From Thermodesulfobacteriota bacterium (GTDB lineage Bacteria; Desulfobacterota_D; UBA1144; Nemesobacterales; N074bin48): DNA of 64,000 bases. Shown here in pieces: positions 2,733 through 46,520 of the stretch (positions are counted from its first letter, which is position 1; every line of letters begins with the position of its first letter). The notes below the pieces were generated by a model. That model searched no databases. It had not been told where the DNA came from and saw nothing but the letters and a program-made list of their open reading frames with translations. Made by a program: the position numbers and the translations under genes. The stretch lies in the NCBI GenBank assembly GCA_041572575.1, contig JBFFSH010000001.1, forward strand, positions 11,341 to 75,340. The letters are read 5' to 3'.

Positions 2733-3335
2733 ATGAGCAAAATAAACGTATTAGAGCACAGAATACCGGAATACCCGGTGGATAAATTATTTATCACTCG
2801 CTGGTCACCAAGAGCAATGTCTGGTGAAGCAATAACAAAAGAAGAGCTAATGTCACTTTTTGAGGCTGCAAGGTGGGCACCTTCTGCATTTAATAATCAG
2901 TCATGGAGATTTTTGTATTCACTTAAGGGATCAGAAACCTGGGATACATATTTCGGGCTTCTTGCAGAAGGTAATCAGGCCTGGGTCAACAATGCAGGGG
3001 CTTTAGTTTTGATATTATCAAAGACCACATTTGATTATAATGGAAAGCCAACAAAAACCCATGCGTTTGATATGGGTGCAGCATGGGGAAGTTTTGCACT
3101 ACAGGGCTCAGCAAATGGTCTTGTAATTCACGGTATGCAGGGGTTTGATTATGATAGAGCTAAAACAGAGCTTAAAATACCAGATAGTTATGATATACAG
3201 GCAATGGCTGCAGTGGGAAAACCCGGCAATCCCGCAAGCCTTCCGCAAAAATTAAGAGATATGGAAATACCATCGACCAGAAAGAGCTTGAGTGAAATTG
3301 CAGTTCAAGATGCATCTCTTTTAATAACTGATTGA
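2733..3335 (+). CDS. Nitroreductase-family protein.
   Basis: Length about 200 aa and the WSPRAMS / FNNQSWRF region are typical of NAD(P)H nitroreductase-like proteins. Confidence 0.7.
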   Translation: MSKINVLEHRIPEYPVDKLFITRWSPRAMSGEAITKEELMSLFEAARWAPSAFNNQSWRFLYSLKGSETWDTYFGLLAEGNQAWVNNAGALVLILSKTTFDYNGKPTKTHAFDMGAAWGSFALQGSANGLVIHGMQGFDYDRAKTELKIPDSYDIQAMAAVGKPGNPASLPQKLRDMEIPSTRKSLSEIAVQDASLLITD

Positions 3336-4447
3336 CACCTGCTAAACTGTTGGGTTCAATAATTGCCGCTATGGATTGCCCAACTCTTTCAAACAAGGTC
3401 ATTAATAATGAAAGGCTAACCGAACAAGACGGCCTGTATATGCTTCAAAACTGCGATATGCTCCAGCTTGGCGCTCTTGCCAACTGGATGCGTAAGAAGT
3501 TTAATCCCGAGGGTTATGTTACCTTCGTGGCTGATACTAACCCTAATTACACAAACGTATGTGATACAGAGTGTCTTTTTTGCGCATTCTGGAGACCAGC
3601 GGGGGCAAATGATGCTTATACCATGACGGTGGATGAGGTCATTGACTCGATGAGAACCTCTTTTCATAACGGGGCAACGACGGTGCTGCTTCAGGGCGGG
3701 CATAACCCGGAGATAGGGCTTGATTATTATCTCGATATTATAAAGAAATGGAAACAGGAAATCCCCGATCTTCACCTGCATGCTTTCTCGGCTCCGGAGA
3801 TTAGCGCAATAGCCAAGTATTCAGGCATTGAAACAAAAGAAATTCTACAGCAGTTTTGGGATGCGGGGCTAAGGACAATCCCCGGTGGTGGAGCAGAGGT
3901 TCTTAGCAACAGGACAAGAAAAAAGATAAGCCCACTAAAGATCGATGCCGATCAGTGGATGAAGGTCACCAGAGAAGCGCATGAAATAGGCTTTAAAACT
4001 ACAGCAACGATGATGTTTGGTCATTTTGAAGAGGATGAGGATATTATTGAACATCTGGAGAGGATTAGGCAGCTTCAGGACGAGTTTGGCAATTTCCTGG
4101 CCTTTATTCCGTGGACATTTAAACCAAAGAACACGTTTTTGGAACGGAAACTTCCAAATGAGATAGGTGGTGAAAGATACCTGCGAGTTTTAGCGCTATG
4201 CAGGATTTATCTGGATAATTTTCAGCATGTTCAGGGCTCATGGTTCACTCAGGGCAAAAAAATGGGTTCAATAACCATGAACTATGGAGCAAGCGACATG
4301 GGCGGCACGCTTTACGATGAAAACGTACTCGGCTGCGCAGAGAATAAACTACGTTCTACAGTTGATGAACTGGTATATATGATAAAAAGCGCCGGATTTA
4401 AACCTGCACAAAGAGACACCTTTTATAATATAATAAAAGAGTTTTAA
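3332..4447 (+). CDS. Radical SAM enzyme of the MqnE/MqnC/CofH family (futalosine-pathway-like).
   Basis: CDTECLFCAF is a Cx3Cx2C radical-SAM cluster motif. The 371 aa length and overall similarity fit aminofutalosine synthase or cyclic dehypoxanthinyl-futalosine synthase. There is a 4-nt overlap with the upstream nitroreductase gene. Confidence 0.7.
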   Translation: MTPAKLLGSIIAAMDCPTLSNKVINNERLTEQDGLYMLQNCDMLQLGALANWMRKKFNPEGYVTFVADTNPNYTNVCDTECLFCAFWRPAGANDAYTMTVDEVIDSMRTSFHNGATTVLLQGGHNPEIGLDYYLDIIKKWKQEIPDLHLHAFSAPEISAIAKYSGIETKEILQQFWDAGLRTIPGGGAEVLSNRTRKKISPLKIDADQWMKVTREAHEIGFKTTATMMFGHFEEDEDIIEHLERIRQLQDEFGNFLAFIPWTFKPKNTFLERKLPNEIGGERYLRVLALCRIYLDNFQHVQGSWFTQGKKMGSITMNYGASDMGGTLYDENVLGCAENKLRSTVDELVYMIKSAGFKPAQRDTFYNIIKEF

Positions 4448-8480: not shown

Positions 8481-9488
8481 TTATATTTCTTTATTTTTTT
8501 CATAAACCTGCCCAAGTTCTGCAACAAGCTCTTTTACACCAGTCCCTACAAAAGCAGATAACAACCTGACCGCAAGCCCTCTATTTCTAAAAACTTCTAC
8601 TATTTCTGTTTGTTCATCCTTACTTAGCGTATCAATCTTATTTAGGGCAATAATCATTGGTTTTTCTAGTAACTCTGAAGAAAACTTATTTAATTCTCCC
8701 TGAAGTATTTCAAACTGGCTCACCGGGTCTTTATTGTCAACAGGGGATATATCTATTAAATACAGCAGGATCGATGTCCTCTCTATGTGCTTTAAAAAGT
8801 TAATTCCTAGCCCTGCACCGGTGTGCGCCCCTTCAATCAGACCCGGAATATCTGCAACTACGAATGTTTTGTGTTCCCCATACTCTACAACACCAAGATT
8901 TGGTATGAGCGTTGTAAAAGGATAATCAGCAATCTTGGGCTTTGCAGCAGATATTCTGGATATTAGAGTTGATTTCCCCGCGTTTGGAAACCCTACAATA
9001 CCTATATCAGCAAGAAGCTTAAGCTCCAGGTCAAGGTTTCTCTGCTCCCCTTCTGTCCCCTCTTCAAACTCCCTTGGTGCCTGATTAACTGAGCTTGCAA
9101 ACCTGGCATTTCCCCTGCCCCCGATGCCGCCTCTTGCAATAACATAGGACTCTCCTTGTTGTTTAAGATCATAAATCACTTCACCAGTATCGGCATCTTT
9201 AACAAGAGTCCCAACGGGAAGAGGCACTATAATATCTTGTCCATATTTTCCATGCTGGTTCTTTCCCCTGCCGTTTGCTCCCCTCTGAGCCTTATAAATC
9301 TTCTTATATCTAAAATCCAATAAAGAGTTTATATTTGCATCGGCAAACAATATTACGTTGCCTCCTTTGCCGCCATCACCCCCACTAGGACCGCCCAAAG
9401 GTACAAACTTCTCCCTTCTAAACGCTACGCATCCATCGCCCCCACGCCCGGCAACAACACTTATATTTGCTTCATCAATAAATTTCAT
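8481..9488 (-). CDS. obg: GTPase Obg/CgtA.
   Basis: N-terminal Obg fold (MKFIDEANISVVAGRGGDGCVAFRREKF...GGPSGGDGGKGG). G-domain with GFPNAGKST and DIPGLIEGA. Confidence 0.9.
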   Translation of the reverse strand: MKFIDEANISVVAGRGGDGCVAFRREKFVPLGGPSGGDGGKGGNVILFADANINSLLDFRYKKIYKAQRGANGRGKNQHGKYGQDIIVPLPVGTLVKDADTGEVIYDLKQQGESYVIARGGIGGRGNARFASSVNQAPREFEEGTEGEQRNLDLELKLLADIGIVGFPNAGKSTLISRISAAKPKIADYPFTTLIPNLGVVEYGEHKTFVVADIPGLIEGAHTGAGLGINFLKHIERTSILLYLIDISPVDNKDPVSQFEILQGELNKFSSELLEKPMIIALNKIDTLSKDEQTEIVEVFRNRGLAVRLLSAFVGTGVKELVAELGQVYEKNKEI

Positions 9489-9559
9489 AATACTTTTAGT
9501 AAAACTAATATATCTAAACCCTTGACACTACACGGGCTTATTAATAATATAAAGAACCG

Positions 9560-10333
9560 ATGAGAAAATTATTACTATTAAATTTAATTACCTTAACATT
9601 AATTATTGGGTGTGGTTCTAAAAAACCAATAGAAGGAAATAACGCAAAGGCAATGTATGACAAAGCCCTGGAAGAGCTGAGCAAGGATAAAGGCGGCTTT
9701 TTTGGCCTTTTTAACGCTACGGACTATGGAACAATTGAAGAAACTCTAAAAGAAATACAAATAAGATATACATACAGTCCATACGCAACGCTTGCCGAGC
9801 TTAGAACAGCAGATACATATTTCAAGCGGGGAGAGTATGAGCAGGCCGCTATAGAGTACGAAGAATTCATTAAAAGACACCCTTCTCACAACGGCACCGA
9901 ATATGCAACTTTTTTTCTGGCACTTTGCAACTTTAAATCTATTAGAGGACACGACAGAGATCCAAGTGGTGCAAGGGAAGCTGTTAAATGGTTAAACGAA
10001 TATATAGAGCAATACCCCGATTCTCCACTAGTCCAACAAGCACATAATAATATAAGAGAAACAATAGATGTACTTGCTGAAAGAGAAATATATATTGGAG
10101 ACTATTATTACAATAAAAATAACTTTAAAGCATCTTCAGAACGCTACAAAACGGTTATAGATCAATATCCCCAGACAACACACTATGCAAAGGCACTATA
10201 CCTTTTAGGAAAGTCATACTCTGATATGAATGAAAATAGCCTAGCTCTATCTGCGCTCAATAGGGTAATAAATGAATTTCCCAATTCAAAATATAATAAA
10301 GATGCTTTAGAGCTTGCATCCAGAATAAAGTAG
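9560..10333 (+). CDS. bamD: Outer-membrane protein assembly factor BamD (TPR lipoprotein).
   Basis: Lipoprotein signal LIIGC and TPR repeats, in YfiO/BamD-like arrangement. Confidence 0.75.
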   Translation: MRKLLLLNLITLTLIIGCGSKKPIEGNNAKAMYDKALEELSKDKGGFFGLFNATDYGTIEETLKEIQIRYTYSPYATLAELRTADTYFKRGEYEQAAIEYEEFIKRHPSHNGTEYATFFLALCNFKSIRGHDRDPSGAREAVKWLNEYIEQYPDSPLVQQAHNNIRETIDVLAEREIYIGDYYYNKNNFKASSERYKTVIDQYPQTTHYAKALYLLGKSYSDMNENSLALSALNRVINEFPNSKYNKDALELASRIK

Positions 10334-39451: not shown

Positions 39452-39898
39452 TTATTCCAAGTCCTCTAGTGTTTGTGCATCAAGAACATCTCTATCTCTT
39501 CCAGTCGATCTTTTATTCTTAATCAGATCACTCTTTGAAATAAAAGGAAGCAGTAATCCATCCAGAACTAAGTCGTGCTTACTCTTGTATGCGTCCTTAA
39601 AACTAACACCATCAATATCAGTTAAAACATCAATTCTCACAGGAGCAACACCTATCTGATATACAATATCTTTATTTGAAAAAGTCTCAGGTGTTATATC
39701 CTTAAGAGGGGCTCCAAAATCAGATAAAACCTTGTATAGCTTAACTGAATTTTCTGAAGAGTTCTCCACCCATATATCAAAATCACCAGTTGACCTTGTG
39801 TAACCATATGCGGCCATCGCATATGCACCCACAATAAGGAACTTAACCCGACTTTCTAATAAGCTTTTCAACATCTCTTTGTAATCTTTGTTCAACAT
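39452..39898 (-). CDS. Small nucleotidyltransferase-fold-like protein, function unknown.
   Basis: The N-terminus FLIVGAYAMAAYGYTRSTGDFDIWV resembles a minimal nucleotidyltransferase core (G-x...D-x-D). 148 aa. Confidence 0.45.
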   Translation of the reverse strand: MLNKDYKEMLKSLLESRVKFLIVGAYAMAAYGYTRSTGDFDIWVENSSENSVKLYKVLSDFGAPLKDITPETFSNKDIVYQIGVAPVRIDVLTDIDGVSFKDAYKSKHDLVLDGLLLPFISKSDLIKNKRSTGRDRDVLDAQTLEDLE

Positions 39899-40037
39899 TT
39901 TTCCTGTCTTTGAAATACCATACCTCTCTTGTTAGTTCCCACACCATTGATATTCTTTCTTGCGGAGACGCATCTACAAACCCACTATCATTATCTTTAA
40001 GTCGCTTGATAGCCTCAATATTTTTCTTTAGCCGCAT
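39843..40037 (-). CDS. Small ORF, 64 aa, overlapping the NTase-like gene start by 56 nt in a different frame.
   Basis: ORF track. It lies immediately upstream on the same strand. It could be a partner gene, or a frameshift remnant. Confidence 0.3.
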   Translation of the reverse strand: MRLKKNIEAIKRLKDNDSGFVDASPQERISMVWELTREVWYFKDRKNVEQRLQRDVEKLIRKSG

Positions 40038-40773: not shown

Positions 40774-41991
40774 ATGGAATATCCAAAGCTAAGATTTGTA
40801 GATACTTTTCCAATTGAGCATGAAGGGGGCAAATATGTTTGCCTTAGAGACCCTCAGGACACAAATGGCAATATGCTCCTTGTAGCCCCTCAGGCAATCT
40901 ATGTTATTTCTTATTTCACAGGCAGTAACTCCATAGTGGACATTCAGCTAAAGATTCTAAAAGAGCACGGAGAATTAATTGAAAAAGACCATATCATACA
41001 GCTTGCTAAGCAGTTAGACGATGCGCTTCTTCTAGACAGTGACAAATATAGAGACCACCAGCTGCAGCTTGAAAATGACTTTAAAAAATCAAAGATTAGA
41101 GAAGCAAGTCATGCGGGTATGTCATATCCGAATGAAAAAGAAGAATTAACCAAATGGATCGACGGCTATTTTGATAATGGGTCAACCCCATCAAAAAATG
41201 GCAAAAATGCAGTAGGAATAATTTCACCCCATATAGATTTTAACCGAGGCGGCAGTTCCTATGCAAAGGCATATAAGGAGTTATTGGACAATGAGAAGTG
41301 TGAGACATTTATTATTTTTGGTACTTCCCATTACGCATCTGTAGATAACCCTTTTATCCTTACAAGGAAAAGCTTTAATACTCCTTTTGGTGAGGTTAAA
41401 GTGGATCTGGATTTGGTTAACAGCATTGATGATCATTGTGACTGGGATCTATATGAGGGCGAGATATTCCATAAATCAGAACATTCAATAGAATTTCAGG
41501 TGGTATTCCTGCAATATCTTTTTGGCAGCAAAAGGGATATCAAAATCCTGCCTATTCTATGCAACTCTTTTTATAGGTTCATTCAGGATGGAAGCTCTCC
41601 TGGAGATGACTACAAAACAGCCTCTTTTCTGGGTAGCATAAAAAATATAGTTAATAAGCTTGGAGATAAGGCAGTAGTCATAGCCGGAGCCGACCTGGCA
41701 CATATGGGAAACAAGTTTGGTGATGCTGAAGCTGTAAACGATAAGATACTCGAGTGGATAAAATCAAGGGATTACTTAAGTATACTGCACACTGAAAATC
41801 TGGATGCTGAAGCGTTTTACAGATCAGTTGAGCAAGAAAAAGACAAAAGGAAAATTTGCGGGCTTTCCCCGATATATTCATTGCTCTCGGTTATTAATGC
41901 AAAAGAAGGCAAGATGCTGGATTATGGTCAGGCGCTAGAGCCGGACACAGGCTCGGTGGTTACCTATACCAGCATGGGGTTTTACTCATAA
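40774..41991 (+). CDS. Memo-like protein (AmmeMemoRadiSam system protein B family) with an about 110-aa N-terminal extension.
   Basis: ASHAGMSYP...GIISPHIDFNRGG...IIFGTSHYA is Memo1/MEMO-family core. Confidence 0.7.
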   Translation: MEYPKLRFVDTFPIEHEGGKYVCLRDPQDTNGNMLLVAPQAIYVISYFTGSNSIVDIQLKILKEHGELIEKDHIIQLAKQLDDALLLDSDKYRDHQLQLENDFKKSKIREASHAGMSYPNEKEELTKWIDGYFDNGSTPSKNGKNAVGIISPHIDFNRGGSSYAKAYKELLDNEKCETFIIFGTSHYASVDNPFILTRKSFNTPFGEVKVDLDLVNSIDDHCDWDLYEGEIFHKSEHSIEFQVVFLQYLFGSKRDIKILPILCNSFYRFIQDGSSPGDDYKTASFLGSIKNIVNKLGDKAVVIAGADLAHMGNKFGDAEAVNDKILEWIKSRDYLSILHTENLDAEAFYRSVEQEKDKRKICGLSPIYSLLSVINAKEGKMLDYGQALEPDTGSVVTYTSMGFYS

Positions 41992-42948: not shown

Positions 42949-42978
42949 AAAAGCCCGAAGCATAATCTCCGGGCTTTT
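42949..42978 (+). terminator. Rho-independent terminator after the dipeptidase gene.
   Basis: AAAAGCCCG-aagcataatctc-CGGGCTTTT hairpin immediately after the TAA stop. Confidence 0.55.
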
Positions 42979-43061
42979 GGAGGAGGATGGAAACGTAATA
43001 ACTATTTTATTAAATTGTCTATACCTATTTAGATAACGATCAATACAAAGAGATTCAAATC

Positions 43062-44057
43062 ATGAAAATTAAAGTTGGAATTCTTGGAGCTACTGGATAT
43101 ACAGGGGCTGAGTTAATAAGATTACTTACCGCTCACCCAAATACAGAGATTAAATGGCTAACCTCTGAGAGTTTTACAGGACAGAAAATATGTGAAGTTT
43201 TTCCGACATTTAGAAACATTGTTGATCTAAAATGCAAATCAGTAAGAGAAATTGAAGAACTTAAAAAAGTTGATTTGGTATTTTCCTGCCTTCCAAAAGG
43301 TTCGTCCAGCCACTTTTCCAGGTTGTTTTTAGATAAAGGAGCAAAATTTATAGATTTTAGCTCTGACTTAAGATTTAATAAATCCCCAAAAGGCACAAAA
43401 GCTATATATGGCCTGCCCGAACTATTTAGAAATAAGATCAAAAAAACGTATCTTCTTGCTAACCCCGGCTGCTATGCAACTGCAGCATCTCTGGGTCTTG
43501 CTCCACTTATTAACAATAAACTCATAAAAACAGACTCAATAACGATAGATTCCAAGGCAGGACTTTCAGGCGGCGGCAGAGCGCCTGTTGTTTCCAGACA
43601 ATTTTCAGAGGCAAATGATGCGATCTCTGTAGACTCTATATCAGATCATAACCAAAAAACAGAAATAGAAGAGCTTATAAGAAATAGGTACAAAACTAAC
43701 TCAAATCTAATATTCTCGACCTATAATGTTAACATAGACCGCGGTATTTTAACCACCATATCAGCCAAATTAGATGAGTCTGTTACTAAAGAAAAATTGC
43801 ATTCTATATATATGGATTTTTATAAAAACGAGAGGTTTATAAGAATAATAGAAAATGAAGATGCTGTTAGTACTAAAAACATCAGGTTTACTAATTACTG
43901 TGATATTGGTGTAAATATACAGGACAGACATGTAGTATGTGTCACTGCTCTGGACAACCTTGGCAAAGGAGCCTCCGGGCAGGCTGTACAGAATATGAAC
44001 CTGATGTTTAATCTTGATGAATCTGCAGGTTTACTAAATTCAGGTTTATTGCCGTAG
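43062..44057 (+). CDS. argC: N-acetyl-gamma-glutamyl-phosphate reductase family protein (ArgC/LysY-like).
   Basis: N-terminal NAD(P) binding VGILGATGYTGAELIRLL. Catalytic-Cys motif LANPGCYATA. Confidence 0.75.
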   Translation: MKIKVGILGATGYTGAELIRLLTAHPNTEIKWLTSESFTGQKICEVFPTFRNIVDLKCKSVREIEELKKVDLVFSCLPKGSSSHFSRLFLDKGAKFIDFSSDLRFNKSPKGTKAIYGLPELFRNKIKKTYLLANPGCYATAASLGLAPLINNKLIKTDSITIDSKAGLSGGGRAPVVSRQFSEANDAISVDSISDHNQKTEIEELIRNRYKTNSNLIFSTYNVNIDRGILTTISAKLDESVTKEKLHSIYMDFYKNERFIRIIENEDAVSTKNIRFTNYCDIGVNIQDRHVVCVTALDNLGKGASGQAVQNMNLMFNLDESAGLLNSGLLP

Positions 44058-44063
44058 GAATAA

Positions 44064-45533
44064 ATGAATAATTTTTTTGAAATACTTGATAAGTATAAGT
44101 CACTACAAAAATCTGCGCTTATCGAAGAATCTAAAAGCATAAGCTACGAGGAATTATTTAACCTATGCACAAGCCTCTCATCATTTTTATGTAAAAATCA
44201 AATTCATAAAGGTGAGCGGGTTGCCATCTTTATTCCAAATTCCATAGAATTTGCAGTAAGCTTTTTCTCATGTTTAAACCTGGGTGCAGTTGCTGTTCCT
44301 ATAAACCCAAAATTTAAAAAATATGAAATTGAGTACTTTATTAATGACTCCGAGCCAAAACTAATTATTACATCCGATATACTTAAAACATTATTGCTAA
44401 CAGTTAATAAAGAACTGAAGAGCAGAACAATCTCTATTAGTGGTAAAAATCCTGATTTTAATTTACATGAGCTAATATGTTCTGATCGTATTTTAAACCC
44501 TAATTCAACTAGTGAAACGGATAAAGCAGTTTATCTATACTCGACTGGATCTACAGGTAATCCAAAAAGAGTTACAAGAACCCATAAAAATCTGATTACT
44601 CTTGCTAACAACCACAGTGAAACCGTGGGGTTGGATGAATCGGAAAAAATATTGTTTACCCTGCCAATTTCTCATACATATGCCCTTGGCAACTTCATTT
44701 CTGCAATAAAATCCGGTATGACCTGTTATTTACTTGAAGATTTTAACAGGAAAAAAGTAACAGAGATTATTATTAAACAGCAGATAACAATTTATCCTTG
44801 CGTTCCCTTTATACTAGATATCCTGGCTGAATCAAATATTGATCCTGACACATTTAAGAGTCTTAAGCTTGTAATATCCGCAGGCGCTGCGCTTTCTAAA
44901 GAGATATTTGATAAGTTTTCCAATAAATTTGCAAAACATCCAAGACAGCTCTACGGATCTTCAGAAACAGGGGTTATTTCTATAAATCTAAGCAGCAATA
45001 TAGAAAACACATCCGATTCTGTGGGAAGACCCGTAAAAGGGGTTACAGTTAAAATAGTAACCGATGAAGGCAAGGAAGCAGATACCGGAGAATTGGGTGA
45101 AATAATTGTAAAGAGTGAAACAATGACTAACGGATATGATAATATGCCTCAGGAAACCAAAGAGGTTTTTAAAGATGGGTTTTATTATACAGGCGATCTT
45201 GGCTATATGGACAATGACGGAATGATCTATATTAAGGGTCGCAAGAAGCTTATGATAAATATAAGCGGTAATAAAGTCGATCCTGTTGAAATTGAAAATA
45301 TTTTAACTTCACATCCGAAAATACATGAATCCGCTGTAGTAGGAATTACGGATCAAAACAGCACCGAAATAGTAAAGGCTTTTATTGTTTGTGATGAAAA
45401 TATTGAAAGGAAAGATATAATCCAATATCTAATGAATCAGGTTTCAGATTATAAAATACCAAAACTAATAGAATTTGTTCAGTCCATTCCAAAAAGCCCT
45501 ACTGGAAAAATCCTAAGGAACAAACTCAAATAA
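44064..45533 (+). CDS. AMP-dependent synthetase/ligase (adenylate-forming enzyme: acyl-CoA or acyl-carrier ligase).
   Basis: AMP-binding motif LYSTGSTGNPKRV. 6-nt gap after argC-like. Confidence 0.8.
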   Translation: MNNFFEILDKYKSLQKSALIEESKSISYEELFNLCTSLSSFLCKNQIHKGERVAIFIPNSIEFAVSFFSCLNLGAVAVPINPKFKKYEIEYFINDSEPKLIITSDILKTLLLTVNKELKSRTISISGKNPDFNLHELICSDRILNPNSTSETDKAVYLYSTGSTGNPKRVTRTHKNLITLANNHSETVGLDESEKILFTLPISHTYALGNFISAIKSGMTCYLLEDFNRKKVTEIIIKQQITIYPCVPFILDILAESNIDPDTFKSLKLVISAGAALSKEIFDKFSNKFAKHPRQLYGSSETGVISINLSSNIENTSDSVGRPVKGVTVKIVTDEGKEADTGELGEIIVKSETMTNGYDNMPQETKEVFKDGFYYTGDLGYMDNDGMIYIKGRKKLMINISGNKVDPVEIENILTSHPKIHESAVVGITDQNSTEIVKAFIVCDENIERKDIIQYLMNQVSDYKIPKLIEFVQSIPKSPTGKILRNKLK

Positions 45534-45536
45534 ACA

Positions 45537-45788
45537 ATGAGTGAGCAATTAAAACTAAATATTAAAGAAATAATAATAAACAAATTCAATCTTGGCATTG
45601 ATGTCGTCGATTTCGATGAACAAAAGCCCTTTATAGAGTATGGAGTAGGAATTGATTCTGTTGCTAATTTAGAACTTATACTCCAAATTGAAAAGAACCT
45701 TAAGATCAATATAGATGAAGCGCAGGTTAATAGTGAAATACTGTTTAATTTTAAAACTCTTTATAAATTTCTAAGAGATCAGATATGA
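45537..45788 (+). CDS. Acyl or peptidyl carrier protein (phosphopantetheine attachment site).
   Basis: 83 aa with the GIDSV motif around the conserved Ser. 3-nt gap after the ligase. Confidence 0.65.
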   Translation: MSEQLKLNIKEIIINKFNLGIDVVDFDEQKPFIEYGVGIDSVANLELILQIEKNLKINIDEAQVNSEILFNFKTLYKFLRDQI

Positions 45789-45791
45789 CAA

Positions 45792-46520
45792 CTATTTAGC
45801 ATTCTCTTTGGTATTTTTGGTCTCTAGATAACTTGAAAGTGAATCCAGAAACTGTATCCGTATCATTTCTGTGGCCTTTGCAATAGGTTTAATGACCACG
45901 CTGTCATAAACTTCTGAAGCAGTTTCTTCTAATTTGGTATCACCTGCTGTCCTTGCCAGTCTCAGTACTCCTACAGAGTTATAAAACGTAGATTTGGATA
46001 TCGCCTTCTTTGCATCATTAATTCTGAATTCTTCTAAAGCTTTTTGCGCCTCGAGAAGAGAATAAAATCCGACTCCGAAGAACAGGCATAGTATTCTCTT
46101 TACCTCTTCAGCAGACATTACCTCCATTACATTTACCAGTGGAGCTTCCACTATTGCTTCAAGCTGCCTGGTATCACTACCTATAATATTTGCAAGATGC
46201 TTTATCTTATCTTCATCTGCATCTTTCAGAAGACCATTTATGGCGTCTTTAACAAATTCATGGGCAAAGTTATCTCTTATCTCTTCAAGCGACAGGCCCT
46301 CCGATTTAAGAGCTTTAATGTACGCAAGCTTATCCACGGTGTAATCGGGGAAAAACAGGGTTGTAGTCCTGCCCTTATCGTCCTTCACCTTTCTTCTTTT
46401 AGGCTTTGGTATAAGACCTAGTTTTACGCAGGACTTTATAGTCTTTTCAGGATCAGCTCCAAGATTAACATTTTTAACTTTTGAAAATTCAATCAGATCG
46501 GACATAGAAAGATCGGTCAT
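45792..46520 (-). CDS. Hypothetical protein with a possible MerR-like N-terminal HTH.
   Basis: The N-terminal segment loosely resembles a MerR HTH. Weak. Confidence 0.35.
   Translation of the reverse strand: MTDLSMSDLIEFSKVKNVNLGADPEKTIKSCVKLGLIPKPKRRKVKDDKGRTTTLFFPDYTVDKLAYIKALKSEGLSLEEIRDNFAHEFVKDAINGLLKDADEDKIKHLANIIGSDTRQLEAIVEAPLVNVMEVMSAEEVKRILCLFFGVGFYSLLEAQKALEEFRINDAKKAISKSTFYNSVGVLRLARTAGDTKLEETASEVYDSVVIKPIAKATEMIRIQFLDSLSSYLETKNTKENAK

Follow-up and report, generated by a model that had tools for sequence, protein, structure and literature searches.

What does an ArgC-like reductase do when its gene lies directly in front of genes for an adenylating enzyme and a phosphopantetheine carrier? 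This question is raised by a 64,000-nt stretch of DNA (the window) from a low-G+C Dadabacteria/Thermodesulfobacteriota metagenome-assembled genome (MAG), a lineage that recurs in many metagenomes. Here, an ArgC-like gene, a ligase gene and a carrier gene (together, the trio) occupy positions 43062-45788 of the + strand. Our sequence comparisons suggest that the trio may constitute a conserved, co-translated module that acts like a carboxylic acid reductase (CAR) split into three proteins, and we give this reading an even chance of being correct. The features on which it is built are the following.

43062..44057, + strand: ArgC-like NAD(P)H-dependent Cys reductase, 331 aa (Pfam, NCBIfam, PDB alignment)
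43647..43655, + strand: His-Asn-Gln codons 196-198 of the reductase gene, at the site of the canonical HRH motif (HMMER alignment to 1VKN and 8AFU, together with clade alignments)
44064..45533, + strand: ANL-superfamily adenylating enzyme, the ligase, 489 aa (Pfam, motifs)
45537..45788, + strand: stand-alone phosphopantetheine carrier, 83 aa (Pfam, motif)

The stop codon of the ArgC-like gene (TAG, 44055-44057) is followed after 6 nt (gaataa) by the ATG of the ligase gene, and the ligase stop codon (TAA, 45531-45533) is followed after 3 nt (aca) by the ATG of the carrier gene. The first-pass annotation of the window had described this layout correctly: the three open reading frames (ORFs), both gaps, a hairpin upstream and the GCYAT and GIDSV motifs of reductase and carrier are all where it had placed them, and its remark that no other arg genes are nearby holds among the annotated ORFs of the window. 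It had also proposed that the context is non-canonical for argC, and had named as the alternative a coincidental neighbourhood in which orthologues of the ligase and the carrier occur without argC. We looked for such orthologues and found none.

For this purpose one genome per species was scanned by ligase alignment, which returned 80 loci, and ligases with 45% identity or more were counted as orthologues. In 46 of 46 genomes with a ligase orthologue, tblastn and ORF analysis showed the ligase gene lying immediately between the ArgC-like gene, upstream, and the carrier gene, downstream; two further ligase loci are cut by contig ends, and a further nine contexts, approached through ArgC instead of the ligase, show the same order. 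In total, the ArgC-like gene precedes the ligase gene in 55 of 55 untruncated contexts from Dadabacteria/Thermodesulfobacteriota MAGs, and the carrier gene comes next wherever the contig extends far enough, so that the unusual setting of this argC homologue is unbroken across a class-level lineage. When grouped by ArgC identity, the 55 adjacencies form 34 clusters at a threshold of 90%, 13 at 70% and 8 at 60%. Gaps within the trio are mostly 0-17 nt and some are negative; in the branch that we refer to as subclade 2, the start of the carrier gene overlaps the ligase stop codon by 4 nt. Nowhere in the species-level scan did a ligase orthologue occur apart from the ArgC-like gene. Below the orthologue group ligase identity drops to 35% or less, and these generic ligases are accompanied neither by ArgC nor by this acyl carrier protein (ACP). 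Beyond these loci, many ArgC and ligase matches in the databases agree in the length of their longest contig (190966, 132979, 281895, 104698 and 148613 bp are examples).

In close relatives, with ArgC-like proteins 65-74% identical to that of the window, the whole region is syntenic and hence carries little information. At 44-53% ArgC identity the flanks are wholly different (polA, hypothetical genes, DUF8083, rpoD-like), and the block consisting of the ArgC-like gene, the ligase gene, the carrier gene and a convergent gene for a 240-aa protein stays. By lineage, the trio is flanked by Memo/M19 and eda/glgA genes in the marine lineage, by polA and DUF8083/rpoD-like genes in most of subclade 1, by trpB-trpA-DHH in 30 loci and by leuA in one. 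Subclade 2, which includes many complete chromosomes of 1.5-2.4 Mb from genomes closely related to one another, has ArgC-like proteins 36-39% and ligases 45-48% identical to those of the window, and its context reads trpB-trpA-DHH(441 aa)-trio-nadE. In a high-G+C third branch (P0116), leuA is followed by the ArgC-like gene and then by a ligase that is 37% identical over 203 aligned residues of a partial ORF. Complete chromosomes with the trio include OZ244197.1, OZ219814.1, OZ242322.1 and OX638332.1, and the 2.46-Mb ENA contig ctg10004_8x_l has it as well. Since all 55 contexts share the order, with genes that overlap or lie only a short distance apart, although their flanks differ, chance does not account for the arrangement of the trio.

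The company kept by the trio consists of housekeeping and amino acid genes (trpBA, leuA, nadE, birA). No arg genes were found in the window or in the flanks, of about 17 kb, of about 50 relatives, and no AA_kinase or ATP-grasp genes in the flanks of the trio. Likewise, tblastn with the E. coli ArgB sequence and with ArgB and ArgJ from L098, the locus of an unrelated organism with the best canonical argC, gave no argB or argJ match in the window and the fetched loci, a search that covers only the 1.44 Mb around the trio and is uninformative by itself.

By family assignment, the reductase belongs with ArgC. It contains the Pfam domains Semialdhyde_dh and Semialdhyde_dhC_1, and it matches the argC equivalog TIGR01850 (cut-off 233.6) with 331.1 bits, the corresponding score of the subclade 2 protein of L030 being 323.5 bits. 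The best PDB match is ArgC of T. maritima (1VKN; E = 1.9e-68, about 50% identity), and LysY structures match far below ArgC (121 vs 234 bits). The active site was compared between 139 canonical ArgC representatives and 171 sequences of the ligase-linked clade, drawn from a search of 1.84 billion cluster representatives; residues are numbered as in DaArgC, except for R114, which follows the enzyme of Mycobacterium tuberculosis (Mtb). The catalytic Cys (C149 in DaArgC, Cys158 in Mtb, Cys137 in the NPGCYAT motif of the window protein) and E213 are present in 100% of both sets, and the window protein also retains Arg104 (R114), Arg173 (R185) and Glu201 (E213). Similarly, G184 is found in 99% of canonical and 100% of clade sequences, R185 is Arg in 67% of the canonical proteins (Lys in 22%) and in 100% of the clade, which also has an intact C-terminal DNLxKGAxGQAVQNMN motif.

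The differences concern residues with assigned roles in the substrate site. In Mtb ArgC, Cys158 has been proposed to be activated by His219 (the second His in HRH), and the HRH motif binds the phosphate and the carbonyl (PMC12041015). In DaArgC, the GAG motif (G182-A183-G184), S178, Y203 and L233 form the pocket for the branched N-acetylglutamyl side chain, and larger residues at S178 and G182 exclude the native substrate (PMC10170137). In the window protein the canonical K-H-R-H-V-P-E reads D-H-N-Q-K-T-E, with HRH replaced by His196-Asn197-Gln198, and in the pocket Y203 is replaced by Asp191, A183 by Gly171 and L233 by Asn222. The second His of HRH, H210, is His in all canonical representatives (139/139) and Gln in 99% of the 171 clade sequences; it is also Gln in 50 of 50 ligase-linked ArgCs from the loci and in 119 of the 120 database homologues nearest to the window protein. 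Between the canonical set and the clade, His at H208 falls from 99% to 52%, Arg at R209 from 79% to 8% (mostly Asn, Asp or Ser instead), Tyr at Y203 from 99% to 16%, Ala at A183 from 94% to 28%, and Leu at L233 from 81% to about 0% (Thr, Arg, Asn or Gln instead). Only A183, Y203, H210 and L233 are conserved in at least 80% of canonical ArgCs yet in less than 30% of the clade. At the HRH site subclade 1 has H-(N/D)-Q and subclade 2 has D-D-Q, and in the latter G182 is Thr. Given the substrate roles of the changed residues described in PMC12041015 and PMC10170137, the clade departs from ArgC precisely at the predicted substrate-contact positions. Thus, of the properties that mark a functional ArgC, the ArgC-like protein has the fold, the Cys and Arg114 and lacks the HRH motif and the side-chain pocket.

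The ArgC-like protein of the marine sublineage (331 aa) also lacks approximately 14 residues immediately after Arg104 relative to its 345-aa relatives and 1VKN. At this gap (43371-43400, residues about 104-113) the window reads DLRFNKSPKGTKAIYGLPE.

In neighbour-joining analysis, the ligase-linked ArgC clade including subclade 2 was monophyletic in 26 of 30 bootstraps. It has no close canonical sister: identity to every canonical representative is about 41-42%, the closest of these belong to Bacteroidota, Deltaproteobacteria, Bacillota and Thermovibrio, and the best canonical match (P0123, in L098) sits in an argC-argJ-argB operon. The clade is not uniform. The sub-branch formed by L022 and P0057 keeps the whole N-acetylglutamyl pocket, and the member P0183 has A-E-D at the HRH position.

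The ligase consists of an AMP-binding domain (PF00501, 249 bits) and an AMP-binding_C domain (PF13193, 62 bits), and the core motifs YLYSTGSTGxPK, YGSSETG, GDLG and PTGKILR, the last with the A10 lysine, are invariant. It reaches no NCBIfam equivalog cut-off; the best match is the PRK06187 subfamily (377 bits vs a cut-off of 476). Its structural match is FadD13 (3R44, E = 7e-66), and database sources call it a 'long-chain acyl-CoA synthetase'. The A4 motif, PISHTYALGN, is of the acyl/aryl type, with His where amino-acid adenylation domains have the Asp that binds the alpha-amino group. In ANL structures, the A4 and A5 motifs line the acyl pocket. Several of the polar or charged residues that are invariant in the ligase clade (N183, H184, S203, T205, N210, R229, R294, S299 and N308) fall inside these two core motifs, and the nearest ANL relatives have hydrophobic residues at the nine positions. 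The carrier matches PP-binding (PF00550) with 25.3 bits against a cut-off of 20.8, and ACP-family models match it far below their cut-offs. In its motif, EYGVGIDSVA, Asp40-Ser41 is invariant in six orthologues, and Ser41 (codon 45657-45659) is the predicted site of phosphopantetheine attachment.

Combining gene order, active-site comparison and motif content, we suggest that the trio would function in three steps: (i) the ANL enzyme would adenylate a carboxylic acid and pass the acyl group to the phosphopantetheine thiol of its dedicated carrier, (ii) the ArgC-derived enzyme would take the acyl group onto its active-site Cys137 by transthioesterification, and (iii) the acyl-enzyme would be reduced with NAD(P)H and the aldehyde released. 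In this scheme, we infer both that the ligase loads the carrier and that the resulting thioester is the substrate of the ArgC-like reductase. Because of the descent from ArgC, the retention of Arg185 and the polar character of the pocket positions, a small, polar acid is the probable substrate, perhaps still an omega-carboxylate of the glutamate family (N-acetylglutamate or glutamate, for example). The loss of the acyl-phosphate-binding motif and the obligatory coupling to ligase and carrier coincide in one clade, and a causal link between the two would be the simplest account of this coincidence. There is precedent for thioester reduction in the same superfamily, which includes the ASADH-derived archaeal malonyl-CoA reductase and CoA-acylating enzymes of the DmpF type without an identifiable catalytic His (PMC12041015).

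Several observations weigh against this model. The phosphate-binding Arg, R114, is kept in 99% of canonical and 100% of clade sequences. The changed pocket positions are variable across the clade rather than fixed to new residues, and from the alignments the change looks like relaxation, not redesign. P0057 (L096, 1215-2249) keeps Tyr203 and the full HRH motif and is still followed by the ligase gene, and therefore the change from His to Gln is not, as far as the sequences indicate, strictly required for ligase linkage; as P0057 nests beside L022 (Y...HRQ), its HRH could have been either kept or regained through a one-nucleotide reversion. No fusion of ligase, ACP and ArgC domains was found in the top 120 ligase relatives, which are all stand-alone proteins of approximately 490 aa, and no conserved downstream aldehyde-using enzyme was found near the trio. 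All cases may descend from one ancestral juxtaposition, so that the 55 contexts would not be independent events. No canonical paralogue or second argC was found among the nearest homologues, the nearest canonical ArgCs coming from other phyla, and proteins of both subclades exceed the argC equivalog cut-off; automated annotation takes them for the housekeeping enzyme. The idea of the first-pass annotation that an ArgC homologue here reduces a carrier-tethered acyl group consequently stands in part: the replacement of the HRH His by Gln and the loss of Arg209 and of pocket residues speak for it, and the retained Arg114 and the HRH of P0057 speak against it.

One alternative is that the reductase is a housekeeping ArgC with passengers. 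The ligase and the carrier would then have a separate function, for instance in activating acyl groups for lipid or cofactor metabolism, and would have shared the operon of the reductase since one ancestral insertion. This would agree with the TIGR01850 cut-off being passed in both subclades, with the intact Cys149, Arg114, Arg185, Glu213 and C-terminal DNLxKGAxGQAVQNMN motif, with the HRH kept in P0057, with the position of the trio among trpBA, leuA, nadE and birA genes, and with the nearest homologues having yielded no canonical paralogue. However, it needs a coincidence, namely that the only known ArgC clade without a His that is invariant in 139 of 139 canonical proteins is also the only one joined to a ligase and a carrier. 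Moreover, four substrate-contact positions have been lost together, subclade 2 has Asp-Asp-Gln in place of His-Arg-His plus Thr at G182, where enlargement in DaArgC excludes the native substrate, and the gene order has outlasted the change of every flank. We therefore consider a housekeeping role rather unlikely, while regarding it as a serious contender.

Alternatively, as a special case of the split reductase, the trio could provide a thioester route to arginine or proline. The gamma-carboxyl group of N-acetylglutamate (or glutamate) would be activated on the carrier and reduced to the semialdehyde by the rewired ArgC, the ligase and the carrier standing in for the kinase ArgB (or ProB) much as in fungal Lys2, with three proteins instead of one. 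Descent from ArgC, the conserved carboxylate-binding Arg185, the entire N-acetylglutamyl pocket retained in L022 and P0057, and the polar or cationic pocket positions of the ligase are all in line with this route. So are the genomic observations that the ligase and ACP genes hold the place that argJ-argB take behind the canonical argC of L098, that the module is universal in a small-genome lineage, beside trp and leu genes, and that no argB or argJ was found in the 64-kb window and the 1.44 Mb of related loci, the last being uninformative by itself. Yet the residues that hold the side chain, Y203, A183 and L233, are not conserved in most members, and the route would cost ATP to AMP rather than ATP to ADP. 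On balance we find it doubtful that the module serves in this way, and the specific proposal that Dadabacteria make (N-acetyl)glutamate semialdehyde via a phosphopantetheine thioester, with ligase and carrier replacing ArgB (possibly ProB) and the H/D-x-Q ArgC reducing it, is offered equally tentatively. Fatty-aldehyde formation, which the first-pass annotation had listed as an option, would make the ligase a fatty acyl-ACP synthetase and the ArgC-like protein an acyl-ACP reductase giving aldehydes for alcohols, waxes or alkanes. The best matches of the ligase are indeed fatty-acyl-CoA synthetases (PRK06187 with 377 bits, below its cut-off of 476; FadD13 3R44, E = 7e-66), and sources name it accordingly. 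But the ligase, at 489 aa, is short and stays below every fatty-acid equivalog cut-off, its clade-invariant A4 and A5 residues are polar where those of its relatives are hydrophobic, Leu233 and Tyr203 of the reductase have given way to Thr, Arg, Asn, Gln, Asp or Gly, and genes for aldehyde deformylation, alcohol formation or acyltransferases are not linked to the trio. As reductase and ligase alike have polar residues at their pocket positions, this option has become very improbable.

The genes and sequence elements on either side of the trio are as follows.

42949..42978, strand not assigned: G+C-rich hairpin bordered on each side by A and T runs (sequence reading and hairpin scan)
42979..43061, + strand: leader/promoter region of the trio, 83 nt (alignment of relatives)
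45792..46520, - strand: convergent gene for a 242-aa protein with a weak MerR-type helix-turn-helix (Pfam, relatives' loci)

In the window, genes for Memo and an M19 dipeptidase precede the trio, and the MerR-like 242-aa gene, eda and glgA follow it. The hairpin at 42949-42978 has a stem of 12 bp with six G-C pairs in the hairpin scan, and in the alignment the stem is kept in five relatives, including L007, L008, L013 and L009. It is a predicted bidirectional intrinsic-terminator-like site that ends the Memo/M19 dipeptidase pair and parts it from the trio. Immediately behind it, approximately 70 nt ahead of the ArgC-like start, lies a G-rich box, GGAGGAGGATGG (42979-42990), which is unchanged in five relatives although the surrounding spacer is AT-rich and poorly conserved. 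The ATG within this box opens an ORF of 3 codons in the window and of 15-16 codons in relatives; because these ORFs are very short and non-homologous across relatives, the ATG probably does not start a leader peptide. With zero Rfam matches across the window at the gathering threshold, the idea of a riboswitch or leader RNA in front of the trio was rejected.

The 242-aa MerR-like gene (45792-46520) is convergent with the carrier gene, the two stop codons being 3 nt apart. Its product is conserved more than the trio, with 88-90% identity where ArgC has 73-74%, and 56-58% where ArgC has about 50%; a PDB relative was looked for and none was found. The gene adjoins the trio throughout subclade 1 and is not beside it in subclade 2, and because of this absence we leave the protein out of the module, its membership being doubtful. 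On the other side, in 30 loci (among them L030 3319-6833, L088 3431-6939, L020, L025 and all loci of subclade 2), trpB, trpA and a gene for a 441-aa DHH-family phosphoesterase lie ahead of the trio in the same orientation, with a gap between the DHH gene and the trio as small as 5 nt (L088). This phosphoesterase is weakly similar to Mn-dependent inorganic pyrophosphatase, and its gene is not nearby in the window lineage. The trpB-trpA-DHH context is probably ancestral for the trio; that a pyrophosphatase-like enzyme is encoded beside a pyrophosphate-releasing ligase may or may not be meaningful.

Two further observations concern the wider surroundings. In the window lineage a homologue of Memo/AmmeMemoRadiSam-system protein B is encoded upstream of the ArgC-like gene (40774-41991), and in L098 argC directly adjoins an AMMECR1 gene, with a LigB/Memo-like gene 6 kb upstream (3281-4066, 9481-9999); the presence of Memo-like genes near both is possibly a coincidence. 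Between nuoJ and a HhH-GPD glycosylase gene, two small overlapping ORFs of 148 aa and 64 aa on the - strand (39452-40037) have no Pfam match. They are present in the window lineage, other genes take their place in L007 and L008, and the pair may have been inserted as a small mobile or toxin-antitoxin-like element.

Known routes from carboxylates to aldehydes include the pairing of a kinase with a Cys-reductase (ArgB/ArgC, Ask/Asd, ProB/ProA), this chemistry with LysW as the carrier, fused proteins with adenylation, peptidyl carrier protein and short-chain dehydrogenase/reductase (SDR) domains (A-PCP-R; CAR, Lys2), and direct acyl-CoA or acyl-ACP reductases. The literature searched contained no account of an ArgC-type reductase linked with an adenylating enzyme and an ACP, and nothing on arginine synthesis or arginine gaps in Dadabacteria. 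If the split-reductase model is correct, adenylation, a phosphopantetheine carrier and an ArgC-fold Cys-reductase would constitute a new combination, and a natural case in which an acyl-phosphate reductase has been re-tooled for thioesters, as in the evolution of malonyl-CoA reductase from ASADH. If the trio were in addition to bypass ArgB, it would provide a new form of arginine/ornithine biosynthesis and the first ArgC-type enzyme that acts on an acyl-S-carrier, and bacteria would have a counterpart of fungal Lys2 in three proteins. Metabolic reconstructions for this widespread marine, sediment and sponge lineage may wrongly credit it with arginine synthesis or wrongly deny it. The module is small, soluble and marked by clear sequence signatures, and it is therefore directly testable. 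Because ArgC has already been engineered into a formyl-phosphate reductase (PMC10170137), the trio may also serve pathway engineering as a compact carboxylate-reducing part.

A number of known ligase-carrier systems were compared with the trio and rejected: DltA/DltC (ACP models match far below their cut-offs, the A4 residue is His and not Asp, and dltB/D companions are missing), the exosortase-associated ligase and ACP (TIGR03098 with 262 bits vs a cut-off of 592, and no genes of the exosortase set), petrobactin AsbD and cispentacin AmcB (both far below cut-offs, without companion genes), and the ornithine-lipid OlsHI carrier (NF052616 with 24.5-34.8 bits vs a cut-off of 130; that pathway uses a GH3-like enzyme in planctomycetes).

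With canonical ArgC the clade shares the fold, the length, about 50% identity to the T. maritima enzyme, the NPGCYxT Cys, Arg114, the GR of GAGR, Glu213 and the C-terminal motif. It differs in having H-N-Q (window) or D-D-Q (subclade 2) for HRH, in the loss of Y203, A183 and L233, and in lying never beside argJ/argB and always beside an ANL ligase and a carrier. The LysY/LysW system of Thermus and archaea resembles the trio in that an ArgC homologue works on a substrate bound covalently to a small acidic carrier. LysW binds its substrate through an amide on the C-terminal Glu, and reduction there still takes place on an acyl phosphate, which the kinase LysZ provides. The trio, in contrast, has a PP-binding carrier and an ANL adenylase, with no adjacent LysX or LysZ genes, and its neighbours are the MerR-like gene, eda and glgA, so that a LysW-type system was rejected. 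Unlike the ArgC-like clade, LysY keeps the catalytic His (His209; PMC12041015), and its Arg102 corresponds to Arg114 of Mtb ArgC, the main phosphate ligand in ArgC and LysY.

CAR and fungal Lys2 (alpha-aminoadipate reductase, A-PCP-R) share the proposed logic of adenylation, a phosphopantetheine thioester and NADPH-dependent reduction to the aldehyde. Both are single polypeptides in which an SDR-type R domain reduces the thioester directly, without a Cys acyl-enzyme. The trio, by its predicted domains, has the ANL unit with its A10 lysine and the carrier with its conserved Ser, and lacks the fused SDR reductase; it consists instead of three proteins with a Cys-dependent reductase of the GAPDH fold (Semialdhyde_dh), and was rejected as CAR or Lys2 proper. 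In mechanism, the proposed formation of a Cys acyl-enzyme from a thioester followed by hydride transfer is shared with malonyl-CoA reductase (4DPL), acylating aldehyde dehydrogenases of the DmpF type and cyanobacterial acyl-ACP reductase. The thioester-reducing members of the GAPDH/ASADH group differ from the trio in that they use CoA or fatty acyl-ACP, belong to branches other than ArgC and have no dedicated ligase and carrier. Of these, malonyl-CoA reductase also parallels the origin proposed here, having arisen itself from an acyl-phosphate reductase (ASADH; PMC12041015).

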